64,000 nt of DNA from a virus (IMGVR_UViG_3300028805_000039:127852-191851), one strand, 5' to 3'; positions 14,641 to 59,259 are shown, numbered from the stretch's first letter. The notes: a model not told the origin generated them from the letters alone. Translations and numbers: made by a program.

Positions 14641-14641
14641 A

Positions 14642-18767: not shown

Positions 18768-18922
18768 ATAACATCCTCTCTCCTTTCTTTCTCTCCTTTC
18801 TCTTTCGGGCTCTATCACTTTAATGTGGTAGAGTTCCCGCCCGGGCGATTTTTTATAAATAACTATTGACATTTTTAGAATTTATGTTATAATAAAATTA
18901 CCAAAAGAAAGGAAATAAAGTT

Positions 18923-39636: not shown

Positions 39637-41277
39637 TTGTTAGAATTAATTAATGATGCAGAACAAGAACTTATTCAATACTATATTTCATCTTTTGGAC
39701 CGATTAATAATGATAGTTTAAATCGTCCAATGGCTTCTTTGGATACAATTTTTGCCGAATGGGAAAATTCAAAAACTACTCTCTTTAATATGCTCGGTAA
39801 CTAGTTAATTGTACGACGTCCATATACCTATGTTATTCCAGAACAAAATTTAATTAATACTTTTACTAGTAAAAAATATGAGAATGATTGTTGGGTATTT
39901 CTTTGTTGGTGGAATAGAGAAATTATTGCTCCTTTAACTAATCAAAAAGATATAGACCCTGATTTTCTTCAATTATGTTATGATATTGTTAAACCAGCTA
40001 CATTAGCAGAAAATAAATATTTAAATAATACCAAAGTATTCTATTTGCCGCCTGATAATGAGTCTTTTAAAGTTTCAAAAGGTATGCGGCCTATGAGAAT
40101 TATCACTAAATTAGCTCAAAAATATGGTTGTAAAGAAGAAGTGCTAGAAAAATTTCGTATTTGGCATTCTCAAATTTTAAATAATAAACATATGGATGGA
40201 GAATTGTGCTTATCAATTCACCCACTAGACTTTATGACTATGAGCGATAATGATAATGATTGGCAAAGTTGTATGAATTGGATGAATCATGGAGATTATC
40301 GCGCTGGTACTATTGAATGTATGAATTCTCCTTACGTATTGATGGCTTATTTACATAATCCTAAGCATAAAATGACATTCGGTTCTTAGAATGAATATGA
40401 GTGGAATAGTAAACATTGGCGTGAATTATTTATCATTTATCCAGAAATGATCACTGAAGTAAAAGGATACTGTTTTTAGGATGAAAATTTAACTAATACT
40501 GTTCTAATGTGGATTAAAGAATTGGCTCATAATAATTTAAATTGGGATTATGATGATGATGAAATTAATCTACAAGATAGTAATCCTATACCTTTTAACG
40601 AAGGAGATTTATATTTTCGCGTATATCCTGAAGGATATATGTATAATGATATTGGGACATTAGATAAGCATAGAGCCCGAATTAATCGAGAAAAAATTGG
40701 TAAATATGAAAATATTACTCACTGGTTTGTCCCAAATGAAGAAAAATGGCATTATATGCTTGAACTTCCTTATGGCGGTAAAGCGACTTGTATGTGGTGT
40801 GGTAGAGAATATAGTGAGCCAGATAGAGAAGAATTTGTGTTTTGCGAAAATTGTGATCCATCTACTCGTTGTTGTTATTGTGGAAATTATATAAGAGAAG
40901 AAGATGGATATTATATTGATGATTATGATGGATTAATTTGCATTGATTGTTTAGATTATGAATGTGGTATTGATGATTTAACAGATGAAACTCATATTAA
41001 TAGTAATTTAGATTATATTGAATGGTTAATTGGATATAATGAAGATAACGATCCTATCTTTTATGATGAAGGAATTTGGGTTTATCATCCAAAAGAGAAT
41101 GATAAATATAAAGAATTGTTTTCTAATCCGCCTAAAACTATGAACAATCATTATAGACATCATCAATATATTACAGTAGATGATATTATTAATAAAAGCG
41201 AGTTTGAAGATGTATTTAACTTAAATAATAATATTGAAAATATTATAGCTGAATACATGCAAAAAAATAATAACTGA
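39637..41277 (+). CDS. large hypothetical protein (about 546 aa) with a C-terminal Cys-rich zinc-finger region; recoded (TAG at 39802, 40387 and 40477)
   Basis: track ORFs 40045..40389 and 40507..41277 plus the upstream segment share frame 1 and are separated only by TAG codons; probable TTG start after an aaggaag RBS. Confidence 0.5.
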
Positions 41278-41940: not shown

Positions 41941-41996
41941 ATTGACATATTTAAAAAAAAATGGTAAAATAAAAAAAGAAAGAGGTGAAAATAAAT

Positions 41997-42785
41997 ATGC
42001 GTTTTTGTTTAAGTGGACGATAGACTAATGAATATTTAAAAAAAGCCAATGAACTTATGATAAATTATTTAGATCATAATTTTATTTATGATGCTGTTAA
42101 AATTAATCCAAATGCAATTATTACTTTAATAATTGATACAAATGATAATATTAATTGGGATATTTTATCTCAATATAAAATAATATGTAAATCTGGATTT
42201 AGAATTGCTAGTAATAATACTTCTATTTTATTAGACGCAAAAGAAAAAGGATATAAATTTTTCAATTTAATTCCAGCCAGATATGGATATCAATTAAATG
42301 CTTTAATAAATTTTGGAGTATGCGCTGTTCGAATAGGCGGTTAGTTAGCTCATGAAATGGATTTTTTAAGTAAAATTGATATTGAAAAAAGAATGATTGT
42401 CAATTCAACAGATTCATATTTAAATTTTAACCCTTTAATTGGTGCATGGATCCGTCCAGAAGATTTATCTTTATTAGAATCTATTGATGTTTGCGAATTT
42501 CAATACATCAATCAAAAATAGGAATAGGCTTTATATAGAATTTATGCAGAATAGAAAGAATGGCCTGGACGATTATCTGAATTAATTATTGGAATTAAAG
42601 ATAATGATATAATGAATAGAATGTTGCCTCCAGAATTTACCAAACAAAGACTAAATTGTAAATAGTCTTGTATGAATGGGGGAAGCTGTAAATATTGTGA
42701 GCATGTGTGCGATGCAGCAAAAATAGATTTCATAAAAAAATATAAAATTTTACAAGCAAAAAAAATTATTATGGAGAATAAAGTA
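41997..42785 (+). CDS. hypothetical protein of about 262 aa; recoded (6 in-frame TAG), ends at TGA
   Basis: ATG 41997 is in frame with track ORF 42057..42344 and continues through TAGs to gtaTGA at about 42783. Confidence 0.4.
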
Positions 42786-45859: not shown

Positions 45860-46048
45860 ATGACTGTAAGAGAATTTATTCATAATATTTTGCTTGAAGC
45901 ACATGATTTAGATGCTACTATTTATATTAGTCATACTATTAATGAAGATACAGAAGAAATAGAATCTTTTGATGTTGACAAAATTACTTCTTGGGGAAAT
46001 AATGACATGGTTGATATTGTTCTTCGTAAATGGGAAGGCGGTCAGTAA
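45860..46048 (+). CDS. hypothetical protein
   Basis: ORF track. Confidence 0.5.
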   Translation: MTVREFIHNILLEAHDLDATIYISHTINEDTEEIESFDVDKITSWGNNDMVDIVLRKWEGGQ

Positions 46049-46233
46049 TGCATAGTTTTGATGCTGGTAATGGTTATCGTTTTCATTTTAATAGTGATTA
46101 TTCTGGAGACATAATTATCACTCATCCTGATAAAGAAGAATATGAAATTGATGGAGATGCTTTTATGGCATTTGCTCGATATGCTTTATCCGATGAGTTG
46201 GTTGAACATTTGGCAAGATTTTGGGATAGATAA
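46048..46233 (+). CDS. hypothetical protein
   Basis: inside track ORF 46030..46233 (MHSFDAGNGYRF..). Confidence 0.45.
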   Translation: MHSFDAGNGYRFHFNSDYSGDIIITHPDKEEYEIDGDAFMAFARYALSDELVEHLARFWDR

Positions 46234-46312
46234 ATAAATCTTTTATTTGAAAATTTAAAAAAAATATTATATAATATATATGTAAGATAAATAAAGATAA
46301 GGAATTTAAAAA

Positions 46313-46474
46313 ATGACTGCTTATATTATTGTTGCTCTTCAATCATTTGGTACAGATTGGGATATTCATCCTACTATTTTTCTTAATAAAGAAGAAGCTT
46401 TAGAAGAGTGTGCTAAATTAAATAATAAAATTAGCGGTTATGAATATTTTGTAAAAGAAAGAGAGCTTGTGTAA
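46313..46474 (+). CDS. small hypothetical protein (53 aa)
   Basis: late promoter then aaggaat then ATG; MTAYIIVALQSFGTDWD... Confidence 0.4.
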   Translation: MTAYIIVALQSFGTDWDIHPTIFLNKEEALEECAKLNNKISGYEYFVKERELV

Positions 46475-46479
46475 GTTTT

Positions 46480-47580
46480 CTTACTTTTCATAAAAAATCA
46501 AATGACTACTGGTTCGAGTCCTTAGTAACGGCGGCTCCGAAAGGAAAGAAGCGTAATTGCCCTTCGCCGTAGCAGTTGGTGCTTAGTATTTGATTTTTTA
46601 TGAAAGGCAAGAAAGAAAATTTATGGAAGTCGCGCTCCATAGAGAAGTATTGTCTCCTTATGCGTCCGCACTATCAAGTTCAATCGACGATAAAAACCAG
46701 GAACTTGTGACTTTTGAGATTGTTATATAGCCCTCACTGGTTTCAAGAGGAAACCAAAGATGTCCTATATTGTTGTCGTTTAGGCGTGGTTAGTCCCTAC
46801 ATTAAAAGGAAGAAAACCAGCAACTTAGCTAAGCAGTTTCGCTTAACTGCCCTGCGGGGAAATAAGCAATTTAAAATTAAGGGATGCTTTTCCTTATGAC
46901 TAATCGAGGACGTGTGCGGTGGGAATGTTTGAGAATCCAAAAGTTGGCAATGTAGATTAGTCGCTGATGTAGGTTTTATAGGCCTACGGTCGGCATGGAG
47001 ACGATAAACTCATGCAATTGAGTTGCCACCTCTCTAAAAGTGTGGATATGGTGGAAATCCTTATATCTGTGCTGGTAAGCCATAGGAGACATCCTTAAAG
47101 AGTCCCGTGCATACACGATGCCTATTTTGTTGTATGACGAATATAAACATAGGACAAAGAGATATGGCATTGAGACGTGAGGGGATGCCCGAAGTAGACG
47201 AGATGCTAAGGCCAGAGTCTTCAAGAAGTTGATAGCCTAGACTTCTATTAGTCGGTAGACAAGTATTAAAAGTCGAAAAGAAAATAAAGTCTTAATCTGG
47301 AACACATTGAGGTCCAACTCAACAGGGTGAAAAGCTGAGTCCCAGTAATAAAGGAGATAATGAAATCCAGATAGAATGCGTGTGATTGCGGCGAAGCACT
47401 CGTGGTTAAACGAGGTTAGCCTAGTTTACTGCACACCCGATTATGGGCGCCTCACCGCCCATCAAGGTGAGATTGGTGCCTAAATGACAATGGCGTAATG
47501 CAAACTCTTTAAGTCTTTGATGGTTTAAGAGAGAAAGTCCAAAGTAAGAATAGGTTAAATGGAGTTTGAAGAACAGCCAA
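46480..47580 (+). ncRNA. GC-enriched non-coding island of about 1.1 kb (large structured RNA candidate) at the head of the tRNA array
   Basis: no plausible ORFs; dense hairpins such as cataaaaaatcaaat...atttgattttttatg, ggtttcaagaggaaacc and gcaattgagttgc; flanked by tRNAs. Confidence 0.3.
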
Positions 47581-47586
47581 AAAATA

Positions 47587-47662
47587 TGCCGTTCTAGCTC
47601 AATTGGTAGAGCCCGCGACTTATAATCGCGAGGTTCCGGGTTCAATCCCCGGGGGCGGCACC
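47587..47662 (+). tRNA. tRNA-Ile(TAT)
   Basis: acceptor gccgttc/gggcggc; anticodon stem cgcga/tcgcg with loop cttataa; T-arm ccgggttcaatccccgg; CCA. Confidence 0.7.
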
Positions 47663-47752
47663 ATTAAGAAAAAAATTTTTTAGGACAAAGAAAGAAAATG
47701 TATTAAAAATTTTTTTCTTTAAAAGTAAATACCAGAAGAAAGGATGAAAGAT

Positions 47753-47872
47753 ATGGCTAATTTTTTATCTAATGTAAAAAAGGCTCTTCTTATGTATGCG
47801 GTTAGCACTAATCCTACAATGCTACGTTATATGAGCCAAGATGAAATTAGAGATATTTATGACATTCGATAA
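47753..47872 (+). CDS. small hypothetical protein (39 aa)
   Basis: aaaggatgaaagat then ATG; terminator hairpin after it. Confidence 0.3.
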   Translation: MANFLSNVKKALLMYAVSTNPTMLRYMSQDEIRDIYDIR

Positions 47873-48007
47873 GAAGTAAAAATACTTCTTATCAAAGTTG
47901 GTTGGTATTTAATTTGAAAATTTTAAAAATAATTTGAAATTTATAAAAAAATATTATATAATATATATGTAAGATAAATAAAGACAGAAACAGCAATTTT
48001 AATTTAA

Positions 48008-48115
48008 AAATGTTATGATTTGAGGAATCCGGTGTCACGGGTTCAAGTCCCGTCAATAACAAGTGAAAATCTTGCTATTGTAGCTCAGTCGGTAGAGCAC
48101 GAAAAAACTTTTTAA
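48008..48115 (+). pseudogene. degenerate or split tRNA-like fragments (T-arm/acceptor-3' piece followed by a 5' acceptor/D-arm piece)
   Basis: cacgggttcaagtcccgtc as in tRNA-Asp at 50140, then gctattgtagctcagtcggtagagcac without a matching 3' half; preceded by the conserved cagcaattt leader. Confidence 0.3.
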
Positions 48116-48144
48116 ACTGTCTTGTTTTTTAATGGAGAAAAAAT

Positions 48145-48357
48145 ATGCCAAGAGTAAGAGATGATAAATATCATTGGACACCAGAAGCAGATGAATATAT
48201 TTCAATTATTAAACCTTATATTAGTAATATGATACAATTAGGTGAGCATATGGGGTTTGATGAAGCTCAAGTATTTTATCTTATCATGTCTGAATTAGAT
48301 GACGCACAATTAATAAATATATTGAAAAAGAAAGAAAATCAATATAAAAATAAATAA
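48145..48357 (+). CDS. hypothetical protein (70 aa)
   Basis: ORF track. Confidence 0.5.
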   Translation: MPRVRDDKYHWTPEADEYISIIKPYISNMIQLGEHMGFDEAQVFYLIMSELDDAQLINILKKKENQYKNK

Positions 48358-48360
48358 TAT

Positions 48361-48437
48361 GGCCCGTTCGCCCAATTGGTTAGAGCGCTTGACTGTTAAT
48401 CAAGAGGTTCTGGGTTCAAGTCCCAGGCGGGCCGCCA
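48361..48437 (+). tRNA. tRNA-Asn(GTT)
   Basis: acceptor ggcccgt/gcgggcc; anticodon stem cttga/tcaag with loop ctgttaa; T-arm ctgggttcaagtcccag; CCA. Confidence 0.8.
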
Positions 48438-48439
48438 TA

Positions 48440-49510
48440 AGAAATAATGGTAGTAGGCTTAGAAGTAGCCATCTTTAATGAGTAGTGATATGCCGTATGT
48501 GAGTATAGATAGTTTGTTAGTAAAGCTACTATGAATGGATAGAGAGAGTCAATTCCAAAGAAAACTAACCTTAAATTAGTCAGTTAAAAACGGGAACGCG
48601 GGGAGAAGCGGCTGTATATCAACCTGCGCTACGTGAAGCTATGGAGCTAATGAAGTTATGCTTGCAAGGACGGGGCCGACCTAAATGACCAATATACTTT
48701 TAGTGTAATAACACGCCATTATATTAGGTTGCCAGTTTACCAATACATTAAAAACTGATTTTATTAGGTTTTCAGTTTACCAATACATTAAAAAACTGGC
48801 CGGTAGTATAACCGTAAGCAAGGTGCAATACTTGCGGGAAACCGCAAAAGGGTGTCGTAGGTAACGACAGCAAGGCGAGTGCAAATCCACCCTAAAATTA
48901 AAAAATGGGTCAGGTCCTATCGCCCGATTAGGTAGGCGAGGAAAGTGAGGTAGGTTTTTATTCATAATGAATAATGTAAAATCCTTCGCCTTGTAAGCGT
49001 CCAAGTGAAATATATTGGCTACCTAATCTTTTTATCTATCTATCAAGAGTAGAAAAGATTGAGGCCGATTTAAATGCGGCGGTCGTATAAAATACCGCAT
49101 ACAACGAGACCTAACTTAGGATAAGTTATGGTGTTATTTATGATTTGCGCGCAGGTCATCTTAGTGTGTAAAGCCACATTAAATTGAAGGAATCCTTCGC
49201 CCCAGCTTAGGGGAGGAATATAAGCAAAAAGATTTGGCTCTTATTGCCAATTGTCAAAAGTATAAGTATTGTAGTATGCTACACGATAGGGAACCCTAAA
49301 ACACTCGTTAGGTGGGAAGGTGAATTGAGAGTGTAATATATAACTCTATGTGGTGCCCAACATGAAGGTGGCAATGTCGAGCTGACGGCTACAGTAAAGG
49401 GTGACGCCTATCAGTTAGCAGAATATGAAAATTGAGGAGCTATGATGCCTCCGGGGCCATTAGGCTGTCTGGCCACGAAACTCAAGGAAGTTATTTCCAC
49501 CAGTCTTTTT
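48440..49510 (+). ncRNA. GC-enriched non-coding island of about 1.07 kb (large structured RNA candidate) containing a 2 x 38-bp tandem repeat
   Basis: no ORFs with RBS; stems such as gcgggaaaccgc; tandem attaggtt(g/t)(c/t)cagtttaccaatacattaaaaa(a)ctg at 48719-48797. Confidence 0.3.
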
Positions 49511-49514
49511 ATAT

Positions 49515-49604
49515 GCACGAGTGGTGGAATGGTAGACACTGCAGTTTGAGGGACTGTTGCGAAATAATAGTAGCGTGCGGGTTCAAGTCCCGCCTCGTGT
49601 ACCA
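49515..49604 (+). tRNA. tRNA-Leu(GAG), class II
   Basis: acceptor gcacgag/ctcgtgt; anticodon stem gcagt/actgt with loop ttgaggg; long variable arm; T-arm gcgggttcaagtcccgc; CCA. Confidence 0.55.
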
Positions 49605-49677
49605 TAAGAGTTCAAGACATGGTCAGTACATGTTACACCGGTTATTAGTGTAATGGTAAGCACGGAACTCTTTATAT

Positions 49678-49761
49678 GTCGATGTGGTGGAATGGTAGAC
49701 ACGCGACACCTAGGATGTCGTGTCTGATGGCGTGCAGGTTCAAGTCCTGTCATCGACACCA
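49678..49761 (+). tRNA. tRNA-Leu(TAG), class II, with an unusual C33 (loop CCUAGGA)
   Basis: acceptor gtcgatg/catcgac; anticodon stem cgaca/tgtcg; long variable arm; T-loop ttcaagt; CCA. Confidence 0.6.
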
Positions 49762-49817
49762 GCACCTGGCAAGGTGGCAAAGTCAGCCCGTTAGACTTTA
49801 AATGGCGGGACACTTAT

Positions 49818-49902
49818 GCTGAAATGATGGAATGGTAGACATGTCACACTCAAAATGTGATGCCATCACGGCGTGTGGGTTCAAGTCCCACTTTCAGTAC
49901 CA
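49818..49902 (+). tRNA. tRNA-Leu(CAA), class II
   Basis: acceptor gctgaaa/tttcagt; anticodon stem tcaca/tgtga with loop ctcaaaa; long variable arm; CCA. Confidence 0.7.
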
Positions 49903-50139
49903 GGGCTTTATGCCTTTACGATACTACAACAATTATTTCAGTAATGTATTTACTATGGTGGCTTTGAAGATTTCCCATCTAATTACTTAAAAGTAATAAA
50001 CATAAATGAAATCTTCTCTTATTTGAAAATTTAAAAAAAATATTATATAATATATATGTAAGATAAATAAAGACACAAACAGCAATTTGTTATATAACTC
50101 TTGCCGTATTGAGGGAAAATATACGTGTCTTGATTATAT

Positions 50140-50215
50140 GGCTCCGTGATGCAGATGGTTACCATGACGGCCTGTCACGCCGTATACACGGGTTCAAGTC
50201 CCGTCGGAGTCGCCA
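50140..50215 (+). tRNA. tRNA-Asp(GTC)
   Basis: acceptor ggctccg/cggagtc; anticodon stem acggc/gccgt with loop ctgtcac; T-arm acgggttcaagtcccgt; CCA; preceded by a late promoter and the cagcaattt leader. Confidence 0.75.
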
Positions 50216-50219
50216 GCCA

Positions 50220-50570
50220 CTTACTTATGCTGGGATAAGTAAGAGGAAGAAAATATAATACCAGCCGGTTGGTTTTGAAATCCTCCCGTAATTGTAGATG
50301 GAGGGAACCCACCTAGGAAAAACACATCCTAAAGTGAACGCGAGTGGGTTACCGCGTTATCTCTAGCCACAGGTAGGAGTCCTGTGATTAAAACTCCTTA
50401 AATATAATATAGTGCTACGAAGTTATATAGAAATGCGCTGGCCGAAACCAGAAGGCAGTCATATAAATTAAAGAAGCAGTAGTAAATGGAATGAAATAAA
50501 CAGCTATATTATAAACGGAGTTATGAGTTGCAAATGCTTTATCCGTATTTAATACAAAGCGGTAGACTAT
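50220..50570 (+). ncRNA. structured non-coding spacer of about 350 nt
   Basis: hairpins cacttacttatgctgggataagtaag and cctcccgtaattgtagatggagggaa; no ORF. Confidence 0.25.
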
Positions 50571-50649
50571 GGGGCACGGGACTGCTTGGAGTGGTCGCCT
50601 CCCTTGCAAGGAGGATATCAGATGGGTTCGATGCCCATGTGTTCCACCA
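50571..50649 (+). tRNA. tRNA-Ala(TGC), with a non-canonical D-arm
   Basis: acceptor ggggcac/gtgttcc with G3.U70 (the Ala identity pair); anticodon stem cctcc/ggagg with loop cttgcaa; T-arm atgggttcgatgcccat; CCA. Confidence 0.55.
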
Positions 50650-50654
50650 AGAAA

Positions 50655-51255
50655 CTTATTGGTATGGGGTTTATGTGTTTGTCTCCGCCAATAAGAAAAG
50701 AAACACTTTACGCTATAGGTTCGGTTCAAAAATTCCTAGCAAATAAACAATAGAAATCTCGCATAGTGAAAGCGTTCTAATAAGATGTTCAGCGTATAAT
50801 TTATATGGGTAGGTAGCACTCGGTAGTGCGGGACGAAGTCCACCGCGGGAAGTCAGTTCAACTCTGGCCTTATCCACCATAGGTCTACTGTTTATTAGTT
50901 TTATACGACCTCATAAACTGAATAGAAACTATAATTATATGTAGTGGCGGAATAGGTAAACGCTGCGTCGTGAGGCTAAGCTAAAAACTTAATGATTGAT
51001 TGAGGGAAACCATTGAAAATCACAAATATAGCAGAGAATTTGTAAAAGTCAGAGCGAGAAGACTTAGTCATGATAGGTGCAAATCCTATTCTACATATAA
51101 AAATGGGTAGATTCCAGATACCTCGTAGCGGGAAAATCTGGCGTGGGATAGCGAATCCGAGAGTTCACGCTTACTTTAGCTATTTAGTTCGTAGGGATGA
51201 ACAATAGCGTATGCCTGACATATGTGTGCAAAGACTAGCTGGTCAATATGTCATT
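50655..51255 (+). ncRNA. GC-enriched non-coding island of about 0.6 kb containing a tRNA-like piece (gggtagg-ta-gcactcggtagtgc...)
   Basis: no ORF; D-arm-like and acceptor-like segments without a complete cloverleaf. Confidence 0.25.
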
Positions 51256-51260
51256 TATAT

Positions 51261-51347
51261 GGGTCGGTATGCCTAGCGGCGAGGGCAGGGGACTGTAAAT
51301 CCCTAACAATGGAAACACCGGTGGTTCGAGTCCACCCCGGCCCACCA
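51261..51347 (+). tRNA. tRNA-Tyr(GTA), class II
   Basis: acceptor gggtcgg/ccggccc; anticodon stem gggga/tccct with loop ctgtaaa; long variable arm; T-arm ggtggttcgagtccacc; CCA. Confidence 0.65.
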
Positions 51348-51439
51348 AATTATCTAGTTCAATGGTAGTGCATTAATAAATTTAGAACACTGGCAGGTCT
51401 AAGTCAGAGATTCTTGTTCGATTCAAGAGATAATTGCCA
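51348..51439 (+). tRNA. irregular tRNA whose anticodon loop contains U-CUA-A (8-nt loop AGGUCUAA); candidate amber-suppressor tRNA
   Basis: acceptor aattatc/gataatt (7 of 7 bp), discriminator G, CCA; T-arm tcttg-ttcgatt-caaga; anticodon stem ctggc/gtcag; CTA at 51399-51401; oversized or degenerate D region. Confidence 0.4.
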
Positions 51440-51463
51440 TAAGACATATACAGCAATTTAATT

Positions 51464-51536
51464 TCCAGAATAGTCAAATGGTTAAGACATTTTCCTACAA
51501 AGAAAAATAATGTGCGTTCAAATCGCACTTCCGGAC
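51464..51536 (+). tRNA. tRNA-Cys(ACA)-like with A34, no encoded CCA and one acceptor mismatch
   Basis: acceptor tccagaa/ttccgga; D-arm gtc-aaatggttaa-gac; anticodon stem ttttc/gaaaa with loop ctacaaa; T-arm gtgcgttcaaatcgcac; preceded by the cagcaattt leader. Confidence 0.45.
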
Positions 51537-51572
51537 AAAAATATGTCTTGAAATTTAAATGAGGTTAAATAT

Positions 51573-52094
51573 ATGAATCCTTTAAATGTATTTAATAATC
51601 AATATTACAGTTGGAAATATCCAGAATGTTGGCATAAAAATATTCGTATGTTTTTTAGAAGTATTAAATATGCTTATCAACGAATAACAAAAGGTTTCGC
51701 TTATTGCGATACTTGGGATTTAGATGATTATTATACTCATCTTTTTGTTGATAGTCTTAAAATGTATTCAGAACATATGAATGGTTGGCCGCAAAGTAAA
51801 GAGTTTCCAGAATTTGAAGATTATAAAAAGTATATTGATAAAATAATTTATCTTTTTGATCAATCTATTGAAGGCCATGAAGATATTAAGAATAAATATG
51901 CGGAAGAATATGAAGCTAAAATTCTTAATAAGCCAGATTTTTTGGAAAATATAAATAAAGAAAGAAAACCAGAAGAAAAAGCGTTAATAGATAAATATTT
52001 TAAACGCGAAGATGAACTTTATCATTACCGTAAAGCTTGCCGAAATGAAGCATTAGATATGATGAAACATATTTATGACAGCTTATGGTGGTAA
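51573..52094 (+). CDS. hypothetical protein (173 aa)
   Basis: ORF track; RBS tgaggt. Confidence 0.55.
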   Translation: MNPLNVFNNQYYSWKYPECWHKNIRMFFRSIKYAYQRITKGFAYCDTWDLDDYYTHLFVDSLKMYSEHMNGWPQSKEFPEFEDYKKYIDKIIYLFDQSIEGHEDIKNKYAEEYEAKILNKPDFLENINKERKPEEKALIDKYFKREDELYHYRKACRNEALDMMKHIYDSLWW

Positions 52095-52099
52095 TTGTT

Positions 52100-53160
52100 T
52101 AGTTTAAGATACCTTACAGCAAAAAATGTAATAAAAAAATATGTGGGTGGTTTGGTATCTTGTTTGACAATTCAAAAAAAATTTGATATAATATATTTAG
52201 ACAGTTAGACAGCAATATAATTTAAATAACAAGTTTTATTCAAATATAAAAAGACATGTTTTATTCTCCTTATTTGATATAAAAGAGATTTGATTTTATT
52301 GTGATTCTAATTTCATCAAATCTGCCAGTTATGGAATTATAAAGAAAAGGAATTAACTGTCTAGTTTATTTAAAATTTAAATTATATATAATAAAGACAC
52401 ATGCAGCAATTGATTTACAAAAGGTTGAAATTGTAGGCTGTATACCCACGGTGAAATGGTTCGAATCCATTAAATATTAAAGTGTCTTGTTATTATTAAG
52501 TCTTAAAATATAAATACAAGTTTTGATAACTCAGTGCAGACTATAAGCGACTTATAGGCTGAGAAATACCGAAGTGAGGCTCGGCACGGAACGAAACAAG
52601 GATACTTGTGGATAGTGGACCGCACTTTATATCGTGAGATATAAAGCGAACCCATGCGGGGAAAGGAAAGGTATTGTGCTAAAGTTATCGCAATTTAAAA
52701 TACCCGAGGGCGGGCAGAGTAATAGAAAGCTTTGTTGATAAGACAAAGCCGAATCCAGAAAACCGCGACCGGTGGCACGGCGTGAGAGTCTGGAAAAGCC
52801 AAACAATCTGTTGAATGTAGTTGAATAGGAGAAATCCTAGTATAACGCCTAACCAGGGTGCGAGTAGGGGAAATCTACAAAGGCTCAAATCTTAAAGACT
52901 TGAAGATATTATATTATTGATTGGTAAATATAATTAACAATACAATTTCTGAAAGTCCCCTGAAAGTTGTGGGTAAGCAATCCCACCAAGACGAAAGTTA
53001 GCTGTAAGCTAATGTCATAGGAAGCGTCATATCGACGGGTATGAGCTCAGACCTATGGTAGCTTGTGATTGAAAAAAATTGAAGGTAATTAGTAGTAGGG
53101 GGAAGCCCCATCAAAAAATCTGTATTTATATTTTAGGACTTAAAGTTCTTATTAAGAGAA
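52100..53160 (+). ncRNA. non-coding island of about 1 kb: an AT-rich promoter zone followed by a GC-enriched structured core (52500-53100)
   Basis: no ORFs; an isolated T-arm-like atggttcgaatccat at about 52460; stems such as cccgagggcgggc, ccgcgaccggtggcacggcg and ctacaaaggctc. Confidence 0.3.
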
Positions 53161-53168
53161 AGAAAGAG

Positions 53169-53351
53169 ATGAATATGAGAATTTTATGGATTATTCCTAT
53201 TATGGGAATATTTCTTTATCTTGCTTTATTCATCGTTAATTTAAAAGTTTAGTATGAAATATATAAATTAGAAAAACATCTAAAAAAAACAGAGCAAGAT
53301 AAACCAATGTATGAAATATGGTTAGAAGAAATTGAATCTTTAAATAAATAA
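53169..53351 (+). CDS. small membrane peptide (60 aa); recoded (in-frame TAG at 53250)
   Basis: MNMRILWIIPIMGIFLYLALFIVNLKV-TAG-YEIYKLEKHLKKTEQDKPMYEIWLEEIESLNK then TAA. Confidence 0.45.
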
Positions 53352-53388
53352 CTATATTTCATCAAAAGGAGAAAAAGGTGTTTTATAT

Positions 53389-53464
53389 GCGAGCGTAATT
53401 CAGTTGGTGGAATGCACGACTGATAATCGTGTCGTCACTGGTTCAAGTCCAGTCGTTCGCACCA
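53389..53464 (+). tRNA. tRNA-Ile(GAT)
   Basis: acceptor gcgagcg/cgttcgc; anticodon stem cacga/tcgtg with loop ctgataa; T-arm ctggttcaagtccag; CCA. Confidence 0.8.
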
Positions 53465-53467
53465 TAT

Positions 53468-53543
53468 GCCGCGGTAGCTCAGTTGGTAGAGCGGAGGCCT
53501 GAAGAGCCTCGCGTCGGGGGTTCGAAGCCCTCCTGCGGCACCA
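53468..53543 (+). tRNA. tRNA-Phe(GAA)
   Basis: acceptor gccgcgg/ctgcggc; anticodon stem gaggc/gcctc with loop ctgaaga; T-arm gggggttcgaagccctc; CCA. Confidence 0.8.
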
Positions 53544-53871
53544 AGGAGTAATATCTCCGTAGAGCCGGGAGCCAGGCTCGATAATGAACAGGCTAACTGG
53601 TTGCCAAACCAATGAAAACTATGGTAGTCAATACTGCTCAGGACTAATGAGATTAGAAGCGGCGGTAGGTCTCCCAGTGCCGAAAGTGAAATTTACTAGT
53701 GATTTCCTGGATTTTTATATGGGTGAGTATCCAAATAGTAAAGGAACCGGACCGATAACTGAATCTAGTTTTAGGTTTGAGAACAGCAGCACGGACGTAA
53801 AATCCGGCGCTCAATGAGCTTCGCAGGTGCAAATCCTGTCCTCGCCCACCAAAAGAAAGGAATGGTAATTA

Positions 53872-54068
53872 TGACTTTTGAACTTAAAGATAAAGATTTA
53901 GAAAGTATAACTGGTGGTTCAATTCTTCCTTATCTTGTTGAAGCTGGAGATACTTTAGCAATGATTGCAAAGAAATTTAACTGTACTGTTGAAGAGCTTC
54001 AAAGATGGAATAAAATTGAAAATGTTGATAAGATTGACGTAGGTCAAAAATTGATAATTAAATTTTAA
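53872..54068 (+). CDS. LysM-domain protein (65 aa)
   Basis: YLVEAGDTLAMIAKKFNCTVEELQRWNKI...IDVGQKLII matches the LysM consensus; RBS aaaggaatgg. Confidence 0.65.
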
Positions 54069-54069
54069 A

Positions 54070-54480
54070 AAAAAATTGGCTTTGGTAAGAGGACCCTGTA
54101 AGTAGTTGATAGTGGAACAATAACCAATTTTTATATTACCAACAAGCTACCTGTTGAGACGACGAGGATTGGAGCAACGTCGTTATAAAAATAAATAAAG
54201 ACCCCAATATATTTGGCGGGAATAGAACAAACCGCACGGAGAGGGAAGAGTTTGTAGGTCGCTGCCTTTCGCGTAGCAATAGAGAGGACACGGTAATGAC
54301 TAGTTCGGAAATCCCTTGAAAGAACGAAAACCTACATTAAATAGAATAGTAGGGAATTGCTTTGTGGATTACTGCAAACGCATAAAAATAGCGTGACCCT
54401 ACACGCGGTGCCCCGGTTTATTGTATCGCACAGAGACACGTATAATTTATTCACCTGATGGAATATTAATTTACTGGGGC
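54070..54480 (+). ncRNA. non-coding GC-enriched island of about 0.4 kb
   Basis: no ORF; stems ggcgggaatagaacaaaccgc and gaggacacggtaatgac. Confidence 0.25.
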
Positions 54481-54557
54481 ATTTAATTTCTTATTTGAAA
54501 ATTTTAAAAAAATATTATATAATATTTATAGAAAATAAGAAATGAGGTTTTTTAAAT

Positions 54558-54809
54558 ATGTTTGGTTATCATGATAGTAATAGATGTGCTTTTGACCTTT
54601 GGGCACCTGTTCAGTATGATGATACTGCAGTACAAAACCGAGCTTTTTCTTCTTATTGTTATCATAGCCAAGAGATAGAAGATGCTATTATTGCTATTGG
54701 AAATGGTATTGATTCTCTTGATTTTGATATGGAAATGACTGATGATGATATGCGATATATTGAAGAAGAAGTAAAAAAGAGATATGGTATGACAATTCAT
54801 GTATCTTAA
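54558..54809 (+). CDS. acidic hypothetical protein (83 aa)
   Basis: ORF track; late promoter upstream. Confidence 0.55.
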   Translation: MFGYHDSNRCAFDLWAPVQYDDTAVQNRAFSSYCYHSQEIEDAIIAIGNGIDSLDFDMEMTDDDMRYIEEEVKKRYGMTIHVS

Positions 54810-54882
54810 ATAAAAGATTTCTTATTTGAAAATTTTAAAAAAATATTATATAATATTTATAGAAAAGTGAGGGGAATAAAAA

Positions 54883-55016
54883 ATGAATGATAAATTTGAT
54901 GATTTTGATATTGGCCCTCAAAGTGATGAAAATCATTTAACAGAAATTTGGGAAGAATATCAAAGAAGTATTGAATAGACTTCTGAATGGGTTAAACAGT
55001 ATTAGAAAAATAATTA
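54883..55016 (+). CDS. small acidic protein; recoded (2 in-frame TAG)
   Basis: MNDKFDDFDIGPQSDENHLTEIWEEYQRSIE-TAG-TSEWVKQY-TAG-KNN then TAA. Confidence 0.4.
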
Positions 55017-55019
55017 ATT

Positions 55020-55097
55020 GGCCTGTTCGTCTAAATAGGCAAGGATATTAGACTCTCAATCTGATGATGCTAGGTTCAAATCCTGCACAGGTCACCA
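55020..55097 (+). tRNA. tRNA-Glu(CTC)
   Basis: acceptor ggcctgt/acaggtc; anticodon stem ttaga/tctga with loop ctctcaa; T-loop ttcaaat; CCA. Confidence 0.55.
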
Positions 55098-55099
55098 GC

Positions 55100-55500
55100 A
55101 GGTAATGGCTACTCCTGGGTAAAAAAAGTTGCTAATGGGGTAAAATAAGTTGCCTTACCGGAAAAAAGACTTAAAGGGAACATTCGTCGCACAATGGTAA
55201 AGCCCATAATACGGTGATTATAGAAACTATTCCGTATATATAAGGTTTCGCTTAACCTATTGGAATAAGCTTGTATGGTTCTAATTGAATGAAATGCGAG
55301 TTCAAGACTCGTCTCGCCGTTTGGCGGGTGGTGTAAGAGGAAACAAACACACAGAAGAAATTAATTTTGGTGAAGAAAAATTATTTTGTAGTGAGATAAA
55401 ATTTCTGTAATTCCAAAGAGAACCCTGTAAAAATGATTCACTACCATTTTTACAGTAATGCCGCAAGAGCTGGTAGTGCGGAATATAAATTAATCAGCTT
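55100..55500 (+). ncRNA. non-coding structured spacer of about 0.4 kb
   Basis: no ORF with RBS; T-arm-like gcgagttcaagactcgt without a full cloverleaf. Confidence 0.2.
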
Positions 55501-55502
55501 AT

Positions 55503-55595
55503 ATGGTCTAGTAGACGAACTGGTAAAGTCCCCGCCCTTTCAAGGCGGTGTGCCCAGCGAAAGCGGGTTATGGGTTCAAACCCCATCTAGATCAC
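55503..55595 (+). tRNA. class-II (long variable arm) tRNA with anticodon UUC; identity ambiguous
   Basis: acceptor ggtctag/ctagatc; anticodon stem ccgcc/ggcgg with loop ctttcaa; 21-nt variable arm; T-arm atgggttcaaaccccat; CCA. Confidence 0.5.
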
Positions 55596-55596
55596 C

Positions 55597-55678
55597 ATTG
55601 CGGGGTAGAGGAGTCTGGTCGTCCTCGCCTGCCTCATAAGCAGGAAATCGTTGGTTCAAATCCAACCCCACGCTACCA
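55597..55678 (+). tRNA. tRNA-Met/Ile2-type (anticodon CAT); the acceptor stem has a bulge
   Basis: D-arm gagg-agtctggtcgt-cctc; anticodon stem cctgc/gcagg with loop ctcataa; T-arm gttggttcaaatccaac. Confidence 0.5.
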
Positions 55679-55829
55679 TGTCGTCCAAGCGACAGTAAAT
55701 ATTTTGGTTGGTTAATCGCGAACCTTTAATCAAAATCGCAAAGGAGATAACAGATGATGAAACGTAATAGTAATGTCAAAAACTCCAGCGAGGATAGCCC
55801 AATTGGCTGTTTGAGGTCCTAAGCAAGAC

Positions 55830-55920
55830 CTTAAAAGGCTTAATATCGCAGAGCGAAGAAGTCTTCCATCCTGGCTCATAACCAGGACTCCGCAGGAGCG
55901 TTACCTGCCTCTGCTCCCAA
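55830..55920 (+). ncRNA. tRNA-like element with a perfect CAU anticodon arm but non-canonical D and T arms; C1xU72 mismatch
   Basis: cctgg-ctcataa-ccagg; 3' end ctctgct-c-cca pairs with cgcagag. Confidence 0.3.
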
Positions 55921-55922
55921 AT

Positions 55923-55998
55923 AGCAGGGAGGTTGTTGGTTTACCGGCGAAGTCTCATAAACCTCGTTACGTGAGTTCAATTCTCACCCTTGCTACCA
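55923..55998 (+). tRNA. tRNA with anticodon CAT (third CAU species; Met, fMet or Ile2)
   Basis: acceptor agcaggg/ccttgct; anticodon stem gaagt/acctc (one mismatch) with loop ctcataa; T-arm gtgagttcaattctcac; CCA. Confidence 0.5.
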
Positions 55999-55999
55999 T

Positions 56000-56470
56000 A
56001 GGTTGACACTACCCTCAAAAGTGCCAGTGTGCGGAAAGGATGGATTCCCACTAACCTACCCTAGTTTCGTAGAGGGCTTAGTCATTTAGTAGCACGCTTT
56101 AATAAAAAAGACAACGAAAGCAAGTGGAAAAATAATAATCTTAACCAAATATCCAGAACGTATTTGAAGTCGTTTCTAAGTAGCCCGTCTGGAGGCGTAA
56201 GATTTTAAAGACCCGCCTATAGGGAACCGTATAACTGATAGCGATAGCTGAAAGGCTTGGCTTCGGGGGTGAATATGGCTAGCGGGGAGAAGCCGATATA
56301 TGAAGTTTTTAATACTAGTTATATGAGAATAATTATATATTGGCGCACTACCTTTTCTCATATATTTAAATGTATGGGAAACAAAAGAAGATTTACTATG
56401 AGGTTTCTTTTACATCCCAAGCCAAAGTATTTTGTTTGGTTTTGTTTTTCTTACCTCATATTTTTTTATA
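56000..56470 (+). ncRNA. non-coding spacer of about 0.47 kb (GC-enriched 5' part)
   Basis: only spurious short ORFs without RBS. Confidence 0.2.
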
Positions 56471-56475
56471 TGCTT

Positions 56476-56571
56476 GGTGCTCTAAGCCTAATCGGTAAGG
56501 CAGATGCCTGCTAAGCATCGAGTAAGTCGGTTTTTCCGGCTGTCCCAGTTCAAGTCTGGGGAGCATCGCCA
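56476..56571 (+). tRNA. tRNA-Ser(GCT), class II
   Basis: acceptor ggtgctc/gagcatc; anticodon stem gatgc/gcatc with loop ctgctaa; long variable arm; T-arm cccagttcaagtctggg; CCA. Confidence 0.8.
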
Positions 56572-56717
56572 TTCAAGTAGCAAGGTTTAAGCGAAAAGGG
56601 AAACGGAAAATCCCCCTTGATTTAATCAGGGCTAAATCCGAGATAACCGTGAGCCTTAATCGTAGAAAGGCATAAAGAGATACCAATAGAGATAAAATGT
56701 AATTTATCTTTTATTAT

Positions 56718-56807
56718 GGCAGCGTACTGTAATGGTAACAGCCCTGACTTGAAATCAGAGAGTAGGTCGCGAGGTCTATGCGGGTTCGAATCCTGCCGCT
56801 GTCGCCA
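56718..56807 (+). tRNA. tRNA-Ser(TGA), class II
   Basis: acceptor ggcagcg/cgctgtc; anticodon loop cttgaaa; long variable arm; T-arm gcgggttcgaatcctgc; CCA. Confidence 0.7.
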
Positions 56808-56811
56808 ATAT

Positions 56812-56894
56812 GGCCGGCTAAGCCTAATGGTAAGGCAGTGGTCTAGAAAACCGCCAGTAAGGGTGATGAGCCCTGTCTCCGTTCAAGTCGGAGG
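56812..56894 (+). tRNA. tRNA-Ser paralog with anticodon loop CUAGAAA (anticodon AGA, A34)
   Basis: D-arm almost identical to Ser(GCT); anticodon stem gtggt/accgc; long variable arm; T-arm ctccgttcaagtcggag; CCA. Confidence 0.55.
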
Positions 56895-56941
56895 CCGGTC
56901 GCCAATTTATTTTAAAAATAAGTAATAAGGAAAATGGAAAA

Positions 56942-57136
56942 ATGAAACATTCTGATAAAGAAAAAGAAATGCACGAAGCTTATGAACGGTATATTAATCA
57001 AATTGCTTATAATTATGCTGATGGAGAAGGATATTATGATTATGGTGGCATAGGAATGAAGCAAAATGCTAGGCGTGCACATCCTTTTGAAGATTATTGG
57101 CCTGGTAAAGAAGAATTTAGCCATTGGAAAGATTAA
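56942..57136 (+). CDS. hypothetical protein (64 aa)
   Basis: ORF track; RBS aaggaaaatggaaaa. Confidence 0.5.
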   Translation: MKHSDKEKEMHEAYERYINQIAYNYADGEGYYDYGGIGMKQNARRAHPFEDYWPGKEEFSHWKD

Positions 57137-57154
57137 AAAATTTAATTAAAAATA

Positions 57155-57496
57155 ATGGATGAACATGTTATTCCTCTTGTTAATTATTTTAATACACATG
57201 GATTAAAAACAGAAATGTCTTGTGAAGGGCATAATAAAACAAATATGTCAATGTTTTGGATTAGTTTTACTAATTCAGTTCAAGAACAAGATATTATAAA
57301 TTTCCAAAAGAAACATATTAATAAATATGGAAATTTTTGTTCTTGCGGTAGATTTGCTCAAAGATTATATGTTTGTGCTGTTACTAATGAAAAATATTGG
57401 TGTTATTTTGCAGCAACAATAGAAGCAGCAAATGAAGATTTAAAAAGGTGGCAACAAGATGATTCAAAATATTGTAATAGGGAAACCGCTGGTTGA
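57155..57496 (+). CDS. Cys/His-containing hypothetical protein (113 aa)
   Basis: ORF track. Confidence 0.5.
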   Translation: MDEHVIPLVNYFNTHGLKTEMSCEGHNKTNMSMFWISFTNSVQEQDIINFQKKHINKYGNFCSCGRFAQRLYVCAVTNEKYWCYFAATIEAANEDLKRWQQDDSKYCNRETAG

Positions 57497-57740
57497 GCCT
57501 TGGAGTTTAATTTCTTATAATAAAGAAGATTTTGAAAAAAACGATAAAAAATATACAATGTTTACTGAAGAAAGATTTCTTCCTACTCTTTTGGTAAATG
57601 CTGGTATTGTTAAATCCAAGAGTGAAATAAAAAGAAATAAACCTGAATTGTGGATTACGCTTGATACATTAGATTGTCTTTGGGTCAAATGGGGCAAAAA
57701 TAAAATCTACATTATTGTAGGAGAAAAATATGAATTTTAA
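57459..57740 (+). CDS. hypothetical protein (93 aa)
   Basis: ORF track. Confidence 0.5.
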   Translation: MIQNIVIGKPLVEPWSLISYNKEDFEKNDKKYTMFTEERFLPTLLVNAGIVKSKSEIKRNKPELWITLDTLDCLWVKWGKNKIYIIVGEKYEF

Positions 57741-57939
57741 TGATAAATATAATGGTGATAAGAACGCTGCATTGCGGGATGGATTGCTAATTAGCAAAGA
57801 AATTGGCCTTTGTGCTTGCGGGAAACCTACAAGATATATTGATATTTATTCCGAAAGTTATTTTTGTTCAGAAGAATGTTATAATAAATTTTATGATGAA
57901 ATGAATGAATGGGTAAATAAAAACGATGAAATATATTGA
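57730..57939 (+). CDS. zinc-ribbon small protein (CACGKPTRYIDIYSESYFCSEEC)
   Basis: ORF track. Confidence 0.5.
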   Translation: MNFNDKYNGDKNAALRDGLLISKEIGLCACGKPTRYIDIYSESYFCSEECYNKFYDEMNEWVNKNDEIY

Positions 57940-58133
57940 TATATATTAGAATTTACGACCTTTTGAACCCAAAGACGAAATAAATAATATTATTTGTGTA
58001 TCAAAATTTCAACCTTGTTGTGTATGCGGACATCCTACTTGCTATGTTGAAATTAATTATGAAGGTTATTTTTGTAGTGAAGAATGTTTGCGGCAATTTG
58101 AGGATAGTATTGACAATTTAAAAAATTTTTAAT
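57933..58133 (+). CDS. paralog of 57730 (CVCGHPTCYVEINYEGYFCSEEC); recoded (1 in-frame TAG)
   Basis: MKYIDIY-TAG-NLRPFEPKDEINNIICVSKFQPCCVCGH... Confidence 0.4.
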
Positions 58134-58174
58134 ATAATATATATGTAAAAAATAAAAAAATGGAGGTTATCCTA

Positions 58175-58798
58175 ATGGTTGGTAATTGGAATGTAAATAT
58201 TAATACTAATGGTATGCCTTAGAAGATTGCTTCTGCATTTGCAGGACTTGCTGATACTCTTATTGGGGCAGAGTATGATTTTGTTGCTTATCTCGGTTCT
58301 CAGGTTGTAAATGGCACAAATCATGCAGTTCTTGCTAAACAAACTGTTCTTTCTGGCAAGGATACAAAGAATCTTGTTGTTCTTATTTTTAATGAGAAAC
58401 CTAATGATACAGTAGCAACTCTTGTAAGTATTGAACGTGTCGTTGAAGGTGGAGAACCTTTGGGCGGCACTCAGGTAAATGTCGAGTTTGAGATTCCTGC
58501 TGAAGCTCAAAAGGCTTTTGATGATGCCTTCGATGGTCGTCTTGGTGCAAAGTGGACTCCTATGGCTCTTCTTGCTACAAAAGTAACTAAGGGTACTAAT
58601 TATGTATATCTTGTTGAAGAGACTCCTGTTGTTTGTGACCCAGTTAAAACTGCTATGCTTGTTACTGTAAATGGAATGACCCATGATGTTGCTTTCGCAG
58701 ATTTGCTTGCTAGTAAGCATGAAATGTCTCTTGGCTATGCCTTTACTTGGTTGAAGAAACCTGGCTTTGGTACTCCTCTTGGCGAGTGGCCCTAATTT
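58175..58798 (+). CDS. hypothetical protein of about 207 aa with an internal duplication; recoded (TAG at codon 15)
   Basis: ATG 58175 (RBS ggaggttatcctaATG) is in frame with track ORF 58460..58795; MVGNWNVNINTNGMP-TAG-KIASAF...; the two halves are similar (NGTNHAVLAKQ.. / KGTNYVYLVEE..). Confidence 0.5.
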
Positions 58799-58829
58799 AA
58801 AATAAAGTGAGGATTTATTCCTCACATAT

Positions 58830-58904
58830 GCTCCTATAGTATAAAGGTTATTACAAGGCACTTGTAATGCTTAGATCTCCGTTCGACTCGGAGTAGGAGC
58901 TCCA
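58830..58904 (+). tRNA. tRNA-Thr(TGT)
   Basis: acceptor gctccta/taggagc; anticodon stem aggca/tgctt with loop cttgtaa; T-arm ctccgttcgactcggag; CCA. Confidence 0.75.
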
Positions 58905-59023
58905 TTAAAAAAGCGATGAAGTGTCTATGACAAAGAGCCTTCAAAAAAATTATACTAGTCCCGCCACTTTGTCTGTATAAGGGAGATAGGTAATAAAAAG
59001 GTTTAGACGTTTTCCTTTTAAAT

Positions 59024-59099
59024 GCCAACTTAGCTCAGTTGGTAGAGCAATACACTAGTAATGTATAGGTCGTGAGTTCGAGTCTCACAGTTGGCTCCA
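59024..59099 (+). tRNA. tRNA-Thr(AGT), A34
   Basis: clean cloverleaf: acceptor gccaact/agttggc; anticodon stem ataca/tgtat with loop ctagtaa; T-arm gtgagttcgagtctcac; CCA. Confidence 0.7.
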
Positions 59100-59103
59100 A
59101 CAT

Positions 59104-59179
59104 GCGGGTATGGTGTTAGTGGTTAGCATATGTGCTTGCCAAGCATAAGGGGAGGGTTCAAGTCCCTCTACTCGCTCCA
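59104..59179 (+). tRNA. tRNA-Gly(GCC)
   Basis: acceptor gcgggta/tactcgc; anticodon stem tgtgc/gcata with loop ttgccaa; T-arm gagggttcaagtccctc; CCA. Confidence 0.75.
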
Positions 59180-59185
59180 TAAAAT

Positions 59186-59259
59186 GCGAATATAGTTTAA
59201 TGGTAGAACGCTACGTTCCCATCGTGGAAGTGAGATTTCGATTATCTTTATTCGCTCCA
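59186..59259 (+). tRNA. tRNA-Gly(CCC)
   Basis: acceptor gcgaata/tattcgc; anticodon stem ctacg/cgtgg with loop ttcccat; T-arm gagatttcgattatctt; CCA. Confidence 0.65.

Follow-up and report, generated by a model that had tools for sequence, protein, structure and literature searches.

Here we describe a segment of phage DNA in which transfer RNA (tRNA) genes are interleaved with GC-rich, non-coding islands. The window, i.e., the whole stretch of DNA analysed, is 64,000 nucleotides (nt) long (IMGVR_UViG_3300028805_000039:127852-191851), and the segment corresponds to positions 46,480 to 56,470, counted from its first letter. The source is a large phage, because several window proteins match PHROG families and the closest relatives are IMG/VR viral contigs. 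We consider it likely that the segment serves this large, AT-rich phage as an island of RNA genes, in which repeated promoters drive plus-strand units of tRNAs and structured RNAs. One of the islands (island 4) is a new member of the ROOL RNAs, and covariation among related contigs shows that two domains of another (module A and domain B of island 1) form predicted RNA families that were previously undescribed.

Based on ARAGORN, the window contains 29 plus-strand tRNAs, 18 of which lie between 47.5 and 56.9 kb, and most of the ARAGORN calls were also confirmed by Rfam (known RNAs were searched for with Rfam 15, using permissive filters). The stretches between the tRNAs have a GC content of 39-46%, compared to 23-31% in the coding DNA around them (coding parts of the AT-rich window have ~27% GC), and they contain no open reading frame (ORF) longer than ~100 codons under the standard code. 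When TAG, TGA or TAA was read as sense, no convincing plus-strand frame appeared in any island. These results confirm the original prediction of GC-rich non-coding islands interleaved with a tRNA array, made from the sequence of the window. The six islands listed at that time are real and are not paralogues of one another in an island-versus-island comparison, but some of their limits had to be redrawn: island 4 is GC-rich only from ~52400 to 53130 (52100-52400 has 24-28% GC and holds a promoter), island 3 contains a tRNA-Ala-like gene, and island 6 is cut into three by tRNAs at 55505-55597, 55597-55678, and 55923-55998. Two stretches had been overlooked, a GC-rich non-coding region at 53544-53860 (46% GC) and a 146-nt spacer at 56572-56717.

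The promoter family (TTGAAA or TTGACA, 17 nt, TATAAT) is present in seven copies, all on the plus strand and scoring 11-12 of 12 in a promoter scan, and corresponds to direct-repeat families (D1/D3) with 7-8 copies. No strong plus-strand terminators were found within the promoter-headed units. In three related contigs (L002, L014, and L024; relatives carry L numbers hereafter), the repeated promoter lies directly upstream of domain B. We propose that these strong sigma-70-type promoters would drive polycistronic plus-strand units, in which tRNAs alternate with structured RNAs. The flanking tRNAs may act as punctuation, with RNase P and RNase Z releasing the intervening RNAs, by analogy to what has been proposed for GOLLD and ROOL, and recombination together with homing endonucleases could shuffle modules between related phages. 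Shuffling by homing endonucleases is suggested because GIY-YIG genes lie in related arrays: the L002 array contains three free-standing GIY-YIG endonuclease genes (8331-9113, 14448-15098, and 18153-18890), and none was found in the window between 46 and 57 kb.

The assignment of island 4 to ROOL is based on a match to RF03087 of 292.3 bits (gathering score 99.1; E = 4e-66), in keeping with the original prediction, which had named ROOL among its candidates. The RNA is closed by a 29-nt inverted repeat (52496-52524 and 53115-53143), and substitutions per codon phase (75/74/72) show no periodicity. ROOL sits inside the tRNA array, and the arrays of three relatives (IMG/VR contigs L002, L012, and L013) carry ROOL too. 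The alleles in related contigs are only 65-78% identical, and no blastn-level similarity to the window ROOL exists among 50,697 GenBank phage records. From 53384 onwards, contig L074 and the window share 99.9% identity, compared to only 78% for their ROOL alleles (L074 591-1239, window 52493-53160). This places a recombination breakpoint between ROOL and tRNA-Ile(gat), and ROOL has therefore been exchanged by recombination. ROOL and GOLLD are known neighbours of phage tRNA islands, and ROOL RNAs form octameric nanocages (PMC5737381, PMC12286853).

GenBank phages yielded tRNA matches only (megablast and blastn of the region), and an IMG/VR scan with the 173-amino-acid (aa) ORF at 51573-52094 returned no relatives. 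Relatives were reached through this same ORF with a protein database and subsequent contig look-ups. Homologues of the 173-aa protein share 40-92% identity, and their contigs contain syntenic tRNA arrays, again interrupted by large gaps without genes. In sensitive blastn comparisons with these relatives, the islands are conserved in patches only, some of which are placed differently between phages. A search with an 83-aa ORF recovered three distant arrays, which have promoters and tRNAs in common with the window, but not the islands, and an exact-protein look-up of the LysM gene returned only near-identical contigs.

Island 1 has no Rfam 15 match at E<=10, and with the covariation-supported domains A and B it bears out the earlier suggestion that some islands might be something new. 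The core of module A belongs to a conserved patch, in which lineages with only 46% identity in their marker protein still share 97% identity over a 34-nt stretch. Copies of module A were gathered with an exact 19-mer from the best-conserved patch, which matched 11 IMG/VR contigs and 42 metagenome contigs (33 true matches, and 9 chance matches without the flanking core). Three matches in GTDB species representatives were also discarded as chance, the flanking core being absent. A core of 29 nt, AGACGUGAGGGGAUGCCCGAAGUAGACGA (= AGACGTGAGGGGATGCCCGAAGTAGACGA), is invariant in all 40 distinct copies, and it is 100% identical even between lineages that share just 40-46% identity in the adjacent 173-aa protein. 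Plus-strand tRNAs are close by in all copies whose flanks are long enough to tell, the nearest downstream tRNA being 11-1470 nt away and most often tRNA-Ile(UAU). In L062 and L027, module A stops 11 nt before tRNA-Ile(tat).

Five nested helices of module A (22 pairs) were tested on a plain, unfitted MAFFT alignment of 38 sequences (A3). Of the aligned cells, 96.1% are paired, compared to 38-55% when the partners are slid, and compensatory change occurs in 15 of the 22 pairs. The covariation score is 0.369 (control maximum 0.087), a value that none of 500 shuffles reached. An H-type pseudoknot (P3/P4) sits between the conserved segments AAAGAGUCCCGU and CAAAGAG; the sequence of its helices is wholly different between lineages, and pairing is always kept. 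In a restricted-register test, which replaced a generic pseudoknot finder with noisy results (11.4 bp vs. 8.4 +/- 3.9), P3/P4 formed 10.56 of 11 pairs, compared to 8.14 +/- 0.97 in shuffled sequences. In the second pseudoknot, the junction that follows P6 pairs with the last hairpin loop, as GGU/ACC, GGC/GCC or GUG/CAC depending on the lineage. A covariance model (R1) scores 153 bits at module A and finds one copy per locus, with no second copy in the window. Since its alignment left P3/P4 out of the common columns, the registers were set by hand in a further alignment (A6), which includes both pseudoknots and codes gaps as N: here, the 39 pairs are 96.8% paired, 27 of them with compensatory change, and the covariation score is 0.591 (control maximum 0.124). 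RNAalifold missed most of module A on raw alignments because of pseudoknots and register shifts.

The core of domain B folds into seven predicted helices, including a GCUU/AAGC pseudoknot, and contains the conserved segments GUGACUUUUGAGAUUG and CUCACUGGUUUCAA. Based on an alignment of 15 distinct sequences (A5), its 25 pairs are 95.1% paired, compared to 37-51% with slid partners, and 10 of them show compensatory change; none of 500 shuffles reached the observed score. Covariation analysis on homologous phage contigs, which had been proposed with the original prediction, thus supports both A and B. G-U cells outnumber A-C cells in each of them (41:8 in A, 20:9 in B), therefore the plus strand is the RNA. 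Neither A nor B is tRNA-like in sequence or fold. Neither of them has a match in the 50,697 GenBank phage records, Rfam found only tRNAs in 11 related loci, and the literature that was searched holds no description of A or B, nor of the invariant core sequence.

Domain B lies upstream of module A in ~18 lineages, with a gap between them of -28 (abutting) to 272 nt. The long hairpin at the 5' edge of island 1 encloses 84 nt with the T-loop-like GGTTCGAGTCC and is kept only in close relatives; part of the region downstream of module A (47252-47387) also follows it in L030 and L061. Compared to L048 (88% identical), island 1 has 119 substitutions that are spread evenly over the codon phases (40/33/46, p = 0.34), and the reading frame is shifted by 14 of 15 indels. 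Coding controls were periodic, both the 173-aa ORF (p = 0.002) and a protein gene at 58175-58795 (p = 1.5e-5). Without substitution periodicity and with frame-breaking indels, island 1 is therefore non-coding under any code. The copy of module A in L005 (1-158) has a 5' half with L048-like P3/P4 and an L002-like 3' half, and its P6 strands match poorly; these features suggest a recombinant whose breakpoint falls within the invariant core.

Table. Promoters and RNA features of the tRNA array, in order along the window
Feature	Position	Strand	Details
Sigma-70-type promoter, TTGAAA-17-TATAAT	46247-46275	+	Heads a unit of 53-aa ORF, island 1, tRNA-Ile(tat)
Sister promoter copies	47934-47962, 50023-50051, 52164-52192, 54495-54523, 54826-54854, 58110-58138	+	Direct repeats
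Long hairpin, 5' edge of island 1	46477-46614	+	Inverted repeat, 27-nt arms 93% complementary
Domain B	46615-46885	+	Structured, conserved; tested core 46700-46885
Insert between B and A, 177 nt	46886-47062	+	Lineage-specific; absent in L014, L051, L062, where B and A abut
Module A, ~190-nt RNA	47063-47252	+	Nine helices, two pseudoknots (P3/P4; J6/5 with P8 loop)
3' extension of island 1, 335 nt	47253-47587	+	Up to tRNA-Ile(tat) at 47588; minimum free energy z = -2.4
YrlA-like permuted tRNA mimic	48006-48132	+	T-arm, closed acceptor-like hairpin, D-arm; directly after promoter 47934
Island 2	48438-49514	+	5' ~800 nt lineage-variable; 3' module C 49232-49514 (283 nt) abuts tRNA-Leu(gag)
Conserved spacer RNA, 76 nt	49602-49677	+	Between tRNA-Leu(gag) and tRNA-Leu(tag)
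Island 3, mosaic	50216-51260	+	Patches 50263-50355, 50400-50508 (109 nt), 50708-50802, 51102-51260
ROOL RNA, full length (island 4)	52506-53129	+	Rfam RF03087, model positions 1-574 of 574
Island 4b (not in the original list)	53544-53860	+	Module E 53544-53720 after tRNA-Phe, then tRNA-like element 53722-53850
Island 5	54070-54480	+	GC 0.41, ORF-free; minimum free energy z = -0.5; no Rfam match
Island 6	55098-56475	+	Pieces 55098-55504, 55679-55922, 55999-56475, separated by tRNA-Glu, tRNA-Met, tRNA-Met

Among the remaining islands, 2, 3, and 6 and the region 53544-53860 are mosaics of short conserved patches and lineage-specific filler, including non-decoding tRNA-like elements in island 3 and in 53544-53860. 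In island 2, the 5' part has short patches in L048, L012, and L014, of which L048 has 48794-48894 (94%) and 49029-49232 (73%), and module C stands alone between tRNA-Asn and tRNA-Leu in L024 (94% identical). Module C sequences form two groups that have diverged while keeping their stems (alifold z = -2.8), and island 2 has no Rfam match at E<=3. A tandem repeat reported earlier in this island does exist (48718-48794, Tandem Repeats Finder: 1.9 copies, 91% matches), with a unit of 40 nt and not of 38. The spacer RNA that follows is closed by an 8-bp stem (AAGAGTTC/GAACTCTT), as read from its sequence, is 87% identical in L002 (12752-12829), and was found at a depth of 10-20 loci. Conserved patches of island 6 lie at 55732-55817, 56033-56138, and 56221-56471. 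A candidate pistol ribozyme (RF02679) at 55679-55734 was rejected (22.6 bits vs. 34.5), given that its P3 is deleted and AU replaces GU at the cleavage site. Island 5 is related only to near-identical contigs and to a 58-nt patch in L012/L013, with no diverged homologue.

Partial tRNA-like modules, which the original prediction had placed in several islands, are present at 48006-48132, 50807-50879, and 53722-53850, the first of these outside the six islands listed and the last in island 4b. The YrlA-like layout of 48006-48132 is apparent from its sequence and is kept in ~12 loci, with compensatory change in the T-arm, and its match to RF02553 (31.3 bits, E = 0.0016) is below the gathering score of 69. 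In island 3, the tRNA-Ala-like gene called by ARAGORN (50571-50649) was not accepted by the Rfam tRNA model, and a non-decoding cloverleaf (50807-50879) has a CCA end and a three-base anticodon-arm loop (alifold z = -7.5). The element at 53722-53850 (20.1 bits against Rfam tRNA, sub-threshold) is also non-decoding, with a ~50-nt anticodon-loop insertion, a long variable arm, and a GUGCAAAUCC T-loop. The module E stretch upstream of it is 81-89% identical to L002 and L012, with compensatory stems and indels of 1, 2, 4, and 6 nt. Islands 2, 3, and 4b each have a T-loop-like hairpin containing GUGCAAAUCC (48879-48910, 51077-51108, and 53826-53852), and two of these hairpins precede an A/U-rich run and AUGGGU; the resemblance may be due to chance or may reflect a tertiary-contact module common to the three islands. 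The AT-rich patch 50400-50508 is 95.5% identical to L002 3055-3166, with a neighbouring protein that is only 46% identical, and its location differs: island 3 in the window, and the stretch separating B from A in L002. From this distribution, the patch looks like a recently transferred small element.

Several points weigh against the reading of these islands as promoter-driven units of tRNAs and structured RNAs. The promoters are consensus matches only. Minimum free energy (MFE) z-scores, computed against dinucleotide shuffles, are unremarkable in most islands, including module A (-1.6) and domain B (+0.2). Apart from ROOL (-5.0), the island-1 5' hairpin (-4.6), 6a (-3.4), and 6b (-3.1), the segments range between +1.3 and -2.4, and the description of the islands as dense in stems has no folding-energy support in most of them. 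Collecting copies by an exact 19-mer builds in part of the core invariance, and the invariant run reaches 10 nt past the search word in 40 of 40 copies. In A6, the pseudoknot registers were hand-set and three helices were fitted by eye, and its figures lean toward structure. Module A is found alone, without B, in ~40% of lineages (the L015 group and several others), and for this reason B and A may be one RNA of 0.45-1 kb or two separate RNAs. Finally, beyond short patches, diverged homologues are lacking for island 5, 6a, and most of the 5' 800 nt of island 2, and these parts could be non-functional filler.

An alternative is that the islands are mostly debris, i.e., decayed tRNA genes and scars of homing-endonuclease recombination that owe their GC content to their tRNA origin and, with the exception of ROOL, have no function. 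We regard this as doubtful for the islands as a whole. The many tRNA-like fragments and orphan T-arm hairpins fit such an origin, as do the non-decoding elements at 50807-50879 and 53722-53850, the mosaic and lineage-specific content with weak MFE z-scores, and the lack of homologues for island 5, 6a, and most of island 2, and debris may account for the uncharacterised parts. It cannot explain A and B, which are unlike tRNA and have compensatory pairs (27 of 39 and 10 of 25), nor the 29-nt core of A, invariant across lineages with 40-46% protein identity. Island 1 could be a single ornate RNA of ~0.5-1 kb comparable to GOLLD, in which the 5' part and the inserts would be variable and domains B and A conserved, i.e., a third giant class of tRNA-island RNA that is possibly multimeric. 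This proposal is equally doubtful in our estimate. In its favour, B precedes A in fixed order in ~18 lineages and abuts it in L014, L051, and L062, with a promoter directly before B and a tRNA after A, and the niche is the same as that of ROOL and GOLLD (PMC12286853). On the other hand, A lacks B in the L015 group and several other lineages, the gap from B to A varies, island 1 has no GOLLD similarity in Rfam, and no covariation between B and A was seen, none having been sought. Six large single RNAs, as originally envisaged, are not supported, given that A and B are separable and islands 2, 3, and 6 are mosaics of 60-280-nt patches.

Two other explanations are far less probable than the promoter-driven RNA units that we favour. 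It is very unlikely that the unexplained islands are divergent forms of GOLLD, group I or II introns, RNase P RNA or transfer-messenger RNA (tmRNA), all of which had been named as candidates. The genomic context fits GOLLD (RF01998), but the Rfam scans gave no GOLLD match at E<=5 (46000-59500), E<=10 (island 1) or E<=3 (islands 2-3 and 4b-6), and group I/II intron models had no match in these same scans. The islands also lie between complete tRNA genes and not inside them, unlike introns in host genes. RNase P RNA had no Rfam match, and short RNase P-like words in island 1 (e.g., GAAAGTCC at ~47536) are isolated and in the wrong order. ARAGORN found no tmRNA, and only the tRNA-like piece at 50807-50879 (73 nt) scores as a tmRNA-type tRNA domain, sub-threshold (16.8 bits vs. 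47). None of the 11 related loci has a match of this kind. Rfam, suggested as a check with the original prediction, hence returned ROOL in island 4 and none of these other families. Protein coding in the islands under a non-standard genetic code is more improbable still. This phage lineage is suggested to read TAG as sense (gene 58175-58795 and other frames with in-frame TAGs), but readthrough of TAG, TGA or TAA opens no long plus-strand island frames, and the substitution phases and indels of island 1 and the phases of ROOL do not behave as coding sequence. The original prediction had regarded coding under another code as evidence against it; island 1 and ROOL are non-periodic, the other islands being judged by ORF length alone.

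Downstream of the array, the GC-rich region 58172-58829 was considered as a seventh RNA island and rejected, because it is a protein gene with an in-frame TAG. This plus-strand gene (58175-58795) directly follows promoter 58110 and has a ribosome-binding site (GGAGG), an ATG start, and an in-frame TAG as its codon 16 (58220). L024 (2576-3200) has this TAG at the equivalent position, with conserved residues on both sides, and substitutions show third-position bias with coding-type periodicity on both sides of the TAG; no Pfam domain was found in the gene. Other long frames with in-frame TAG codons are located at 39619-41274 (three) and 41973-42785 (six), and the window contains no tRNA with a CUA anticodon. 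The conserved TAG of gene 58175-58795 and the coding-type substitutions around it suggest that TAG is read as sense in this phage. Upstream of promoter 58110, an 88-nt direct repeat (57810-57897 and 58018-58105, 72% identity) in small ORFs rich in Cys codons is probably a duplicated segment of a small zinc-finger-like gene. Among the tRNAs, three have A at the wobble position (Cys(ACA) 51464-51536, Ser(AGA) 56812-56904, and Thr(AGU) 59024-59099), which is unusual for bacterial-type tRNAs, Arg(ACG) excepted, and two are unusually long (Glu(UUC), 93 nt, 55505-55597; Cys(GCA), 90 nt, 62714-62803).

With respect to function, we consider it most likely that module A acts in trans, by means of a catalytic site or a specific binding site, a model suggested by the invariant core in its double-pseudoknot frame. 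Its partner may be a host or phage protein, or a tRNA or another translation component. A more specific model, in which A, alone or with B, would be a new class of functional phage RNA with the core as its active site (a ribozyme, or a binder of tRNA, the ribosome or a host-defence component), is unlikely in our estimate. If true, phage tRNA arrays in general would be a reservoir of ornate RNAs that, unlike GOLLD and ROOL, have yet to be discovered. To our knowledge, these two are among the largest orphan RNAs in biology, and we know of no function for either; both form nanocages, and both lie beside phage tRNA islands. The locus described here combines, within ~10 kb and under one promoter family, a ROOL RNA with several tRNA mimics and no fewer than two additional RNA domains supported by covariation. 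Their co-location suggests that these phage RNAs form a functional set and are not isolated oddities. Module A, at ~190 nt, is small enough for probing, cleavage assays, pull-downs, and structure determination, and its 40 variants support mutate-and-rescue experiments. A partner or activity of A, if found, could be a route to the role of tRNA-island RNAs in infection. We consider the finding real and only partly explained by known biology; some stretches, still uncharacterised, may be filler.

Compared to known systems, island 4 is a member of ROOL by its full-length model match, closing stem, and phage setting beside tRNAs, whereas islands 1, 2, 3, 5, and 6 are not ROOL. The element at 48006-48132 may resemble YrlA (RF02553) in its permuted tRNA-like layout and has a weak model match, but it differs in that 31 bits is far under the gathering score and in its position outside the six listed islands. 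Like GOLLD, which can embed tRNAs (PMC12286853), island 1 is large, belongs to a phage tRNA island, has more than one pseudoknot, and couples a conserved to a variable part; it differs in the helices and invariant core of A and B, which were derived independently and have no GOLLD match at E<=10. Module A matches no Rfam ribozyme or riboswitch model, does not lie in a 5' untranslated region, and allows no cleavage site or ligand to be inferred. It is nevertheless similar to small pseudoknotted ribozymes and riboswitch aptamers (e.g., glmS, pistol, and HDV-like) in its size, double pseudoknot, and invariant nucleotide block, and the combination of such a block with pseudoknots is a pattern typical of a catalytic or ligand-binding core.

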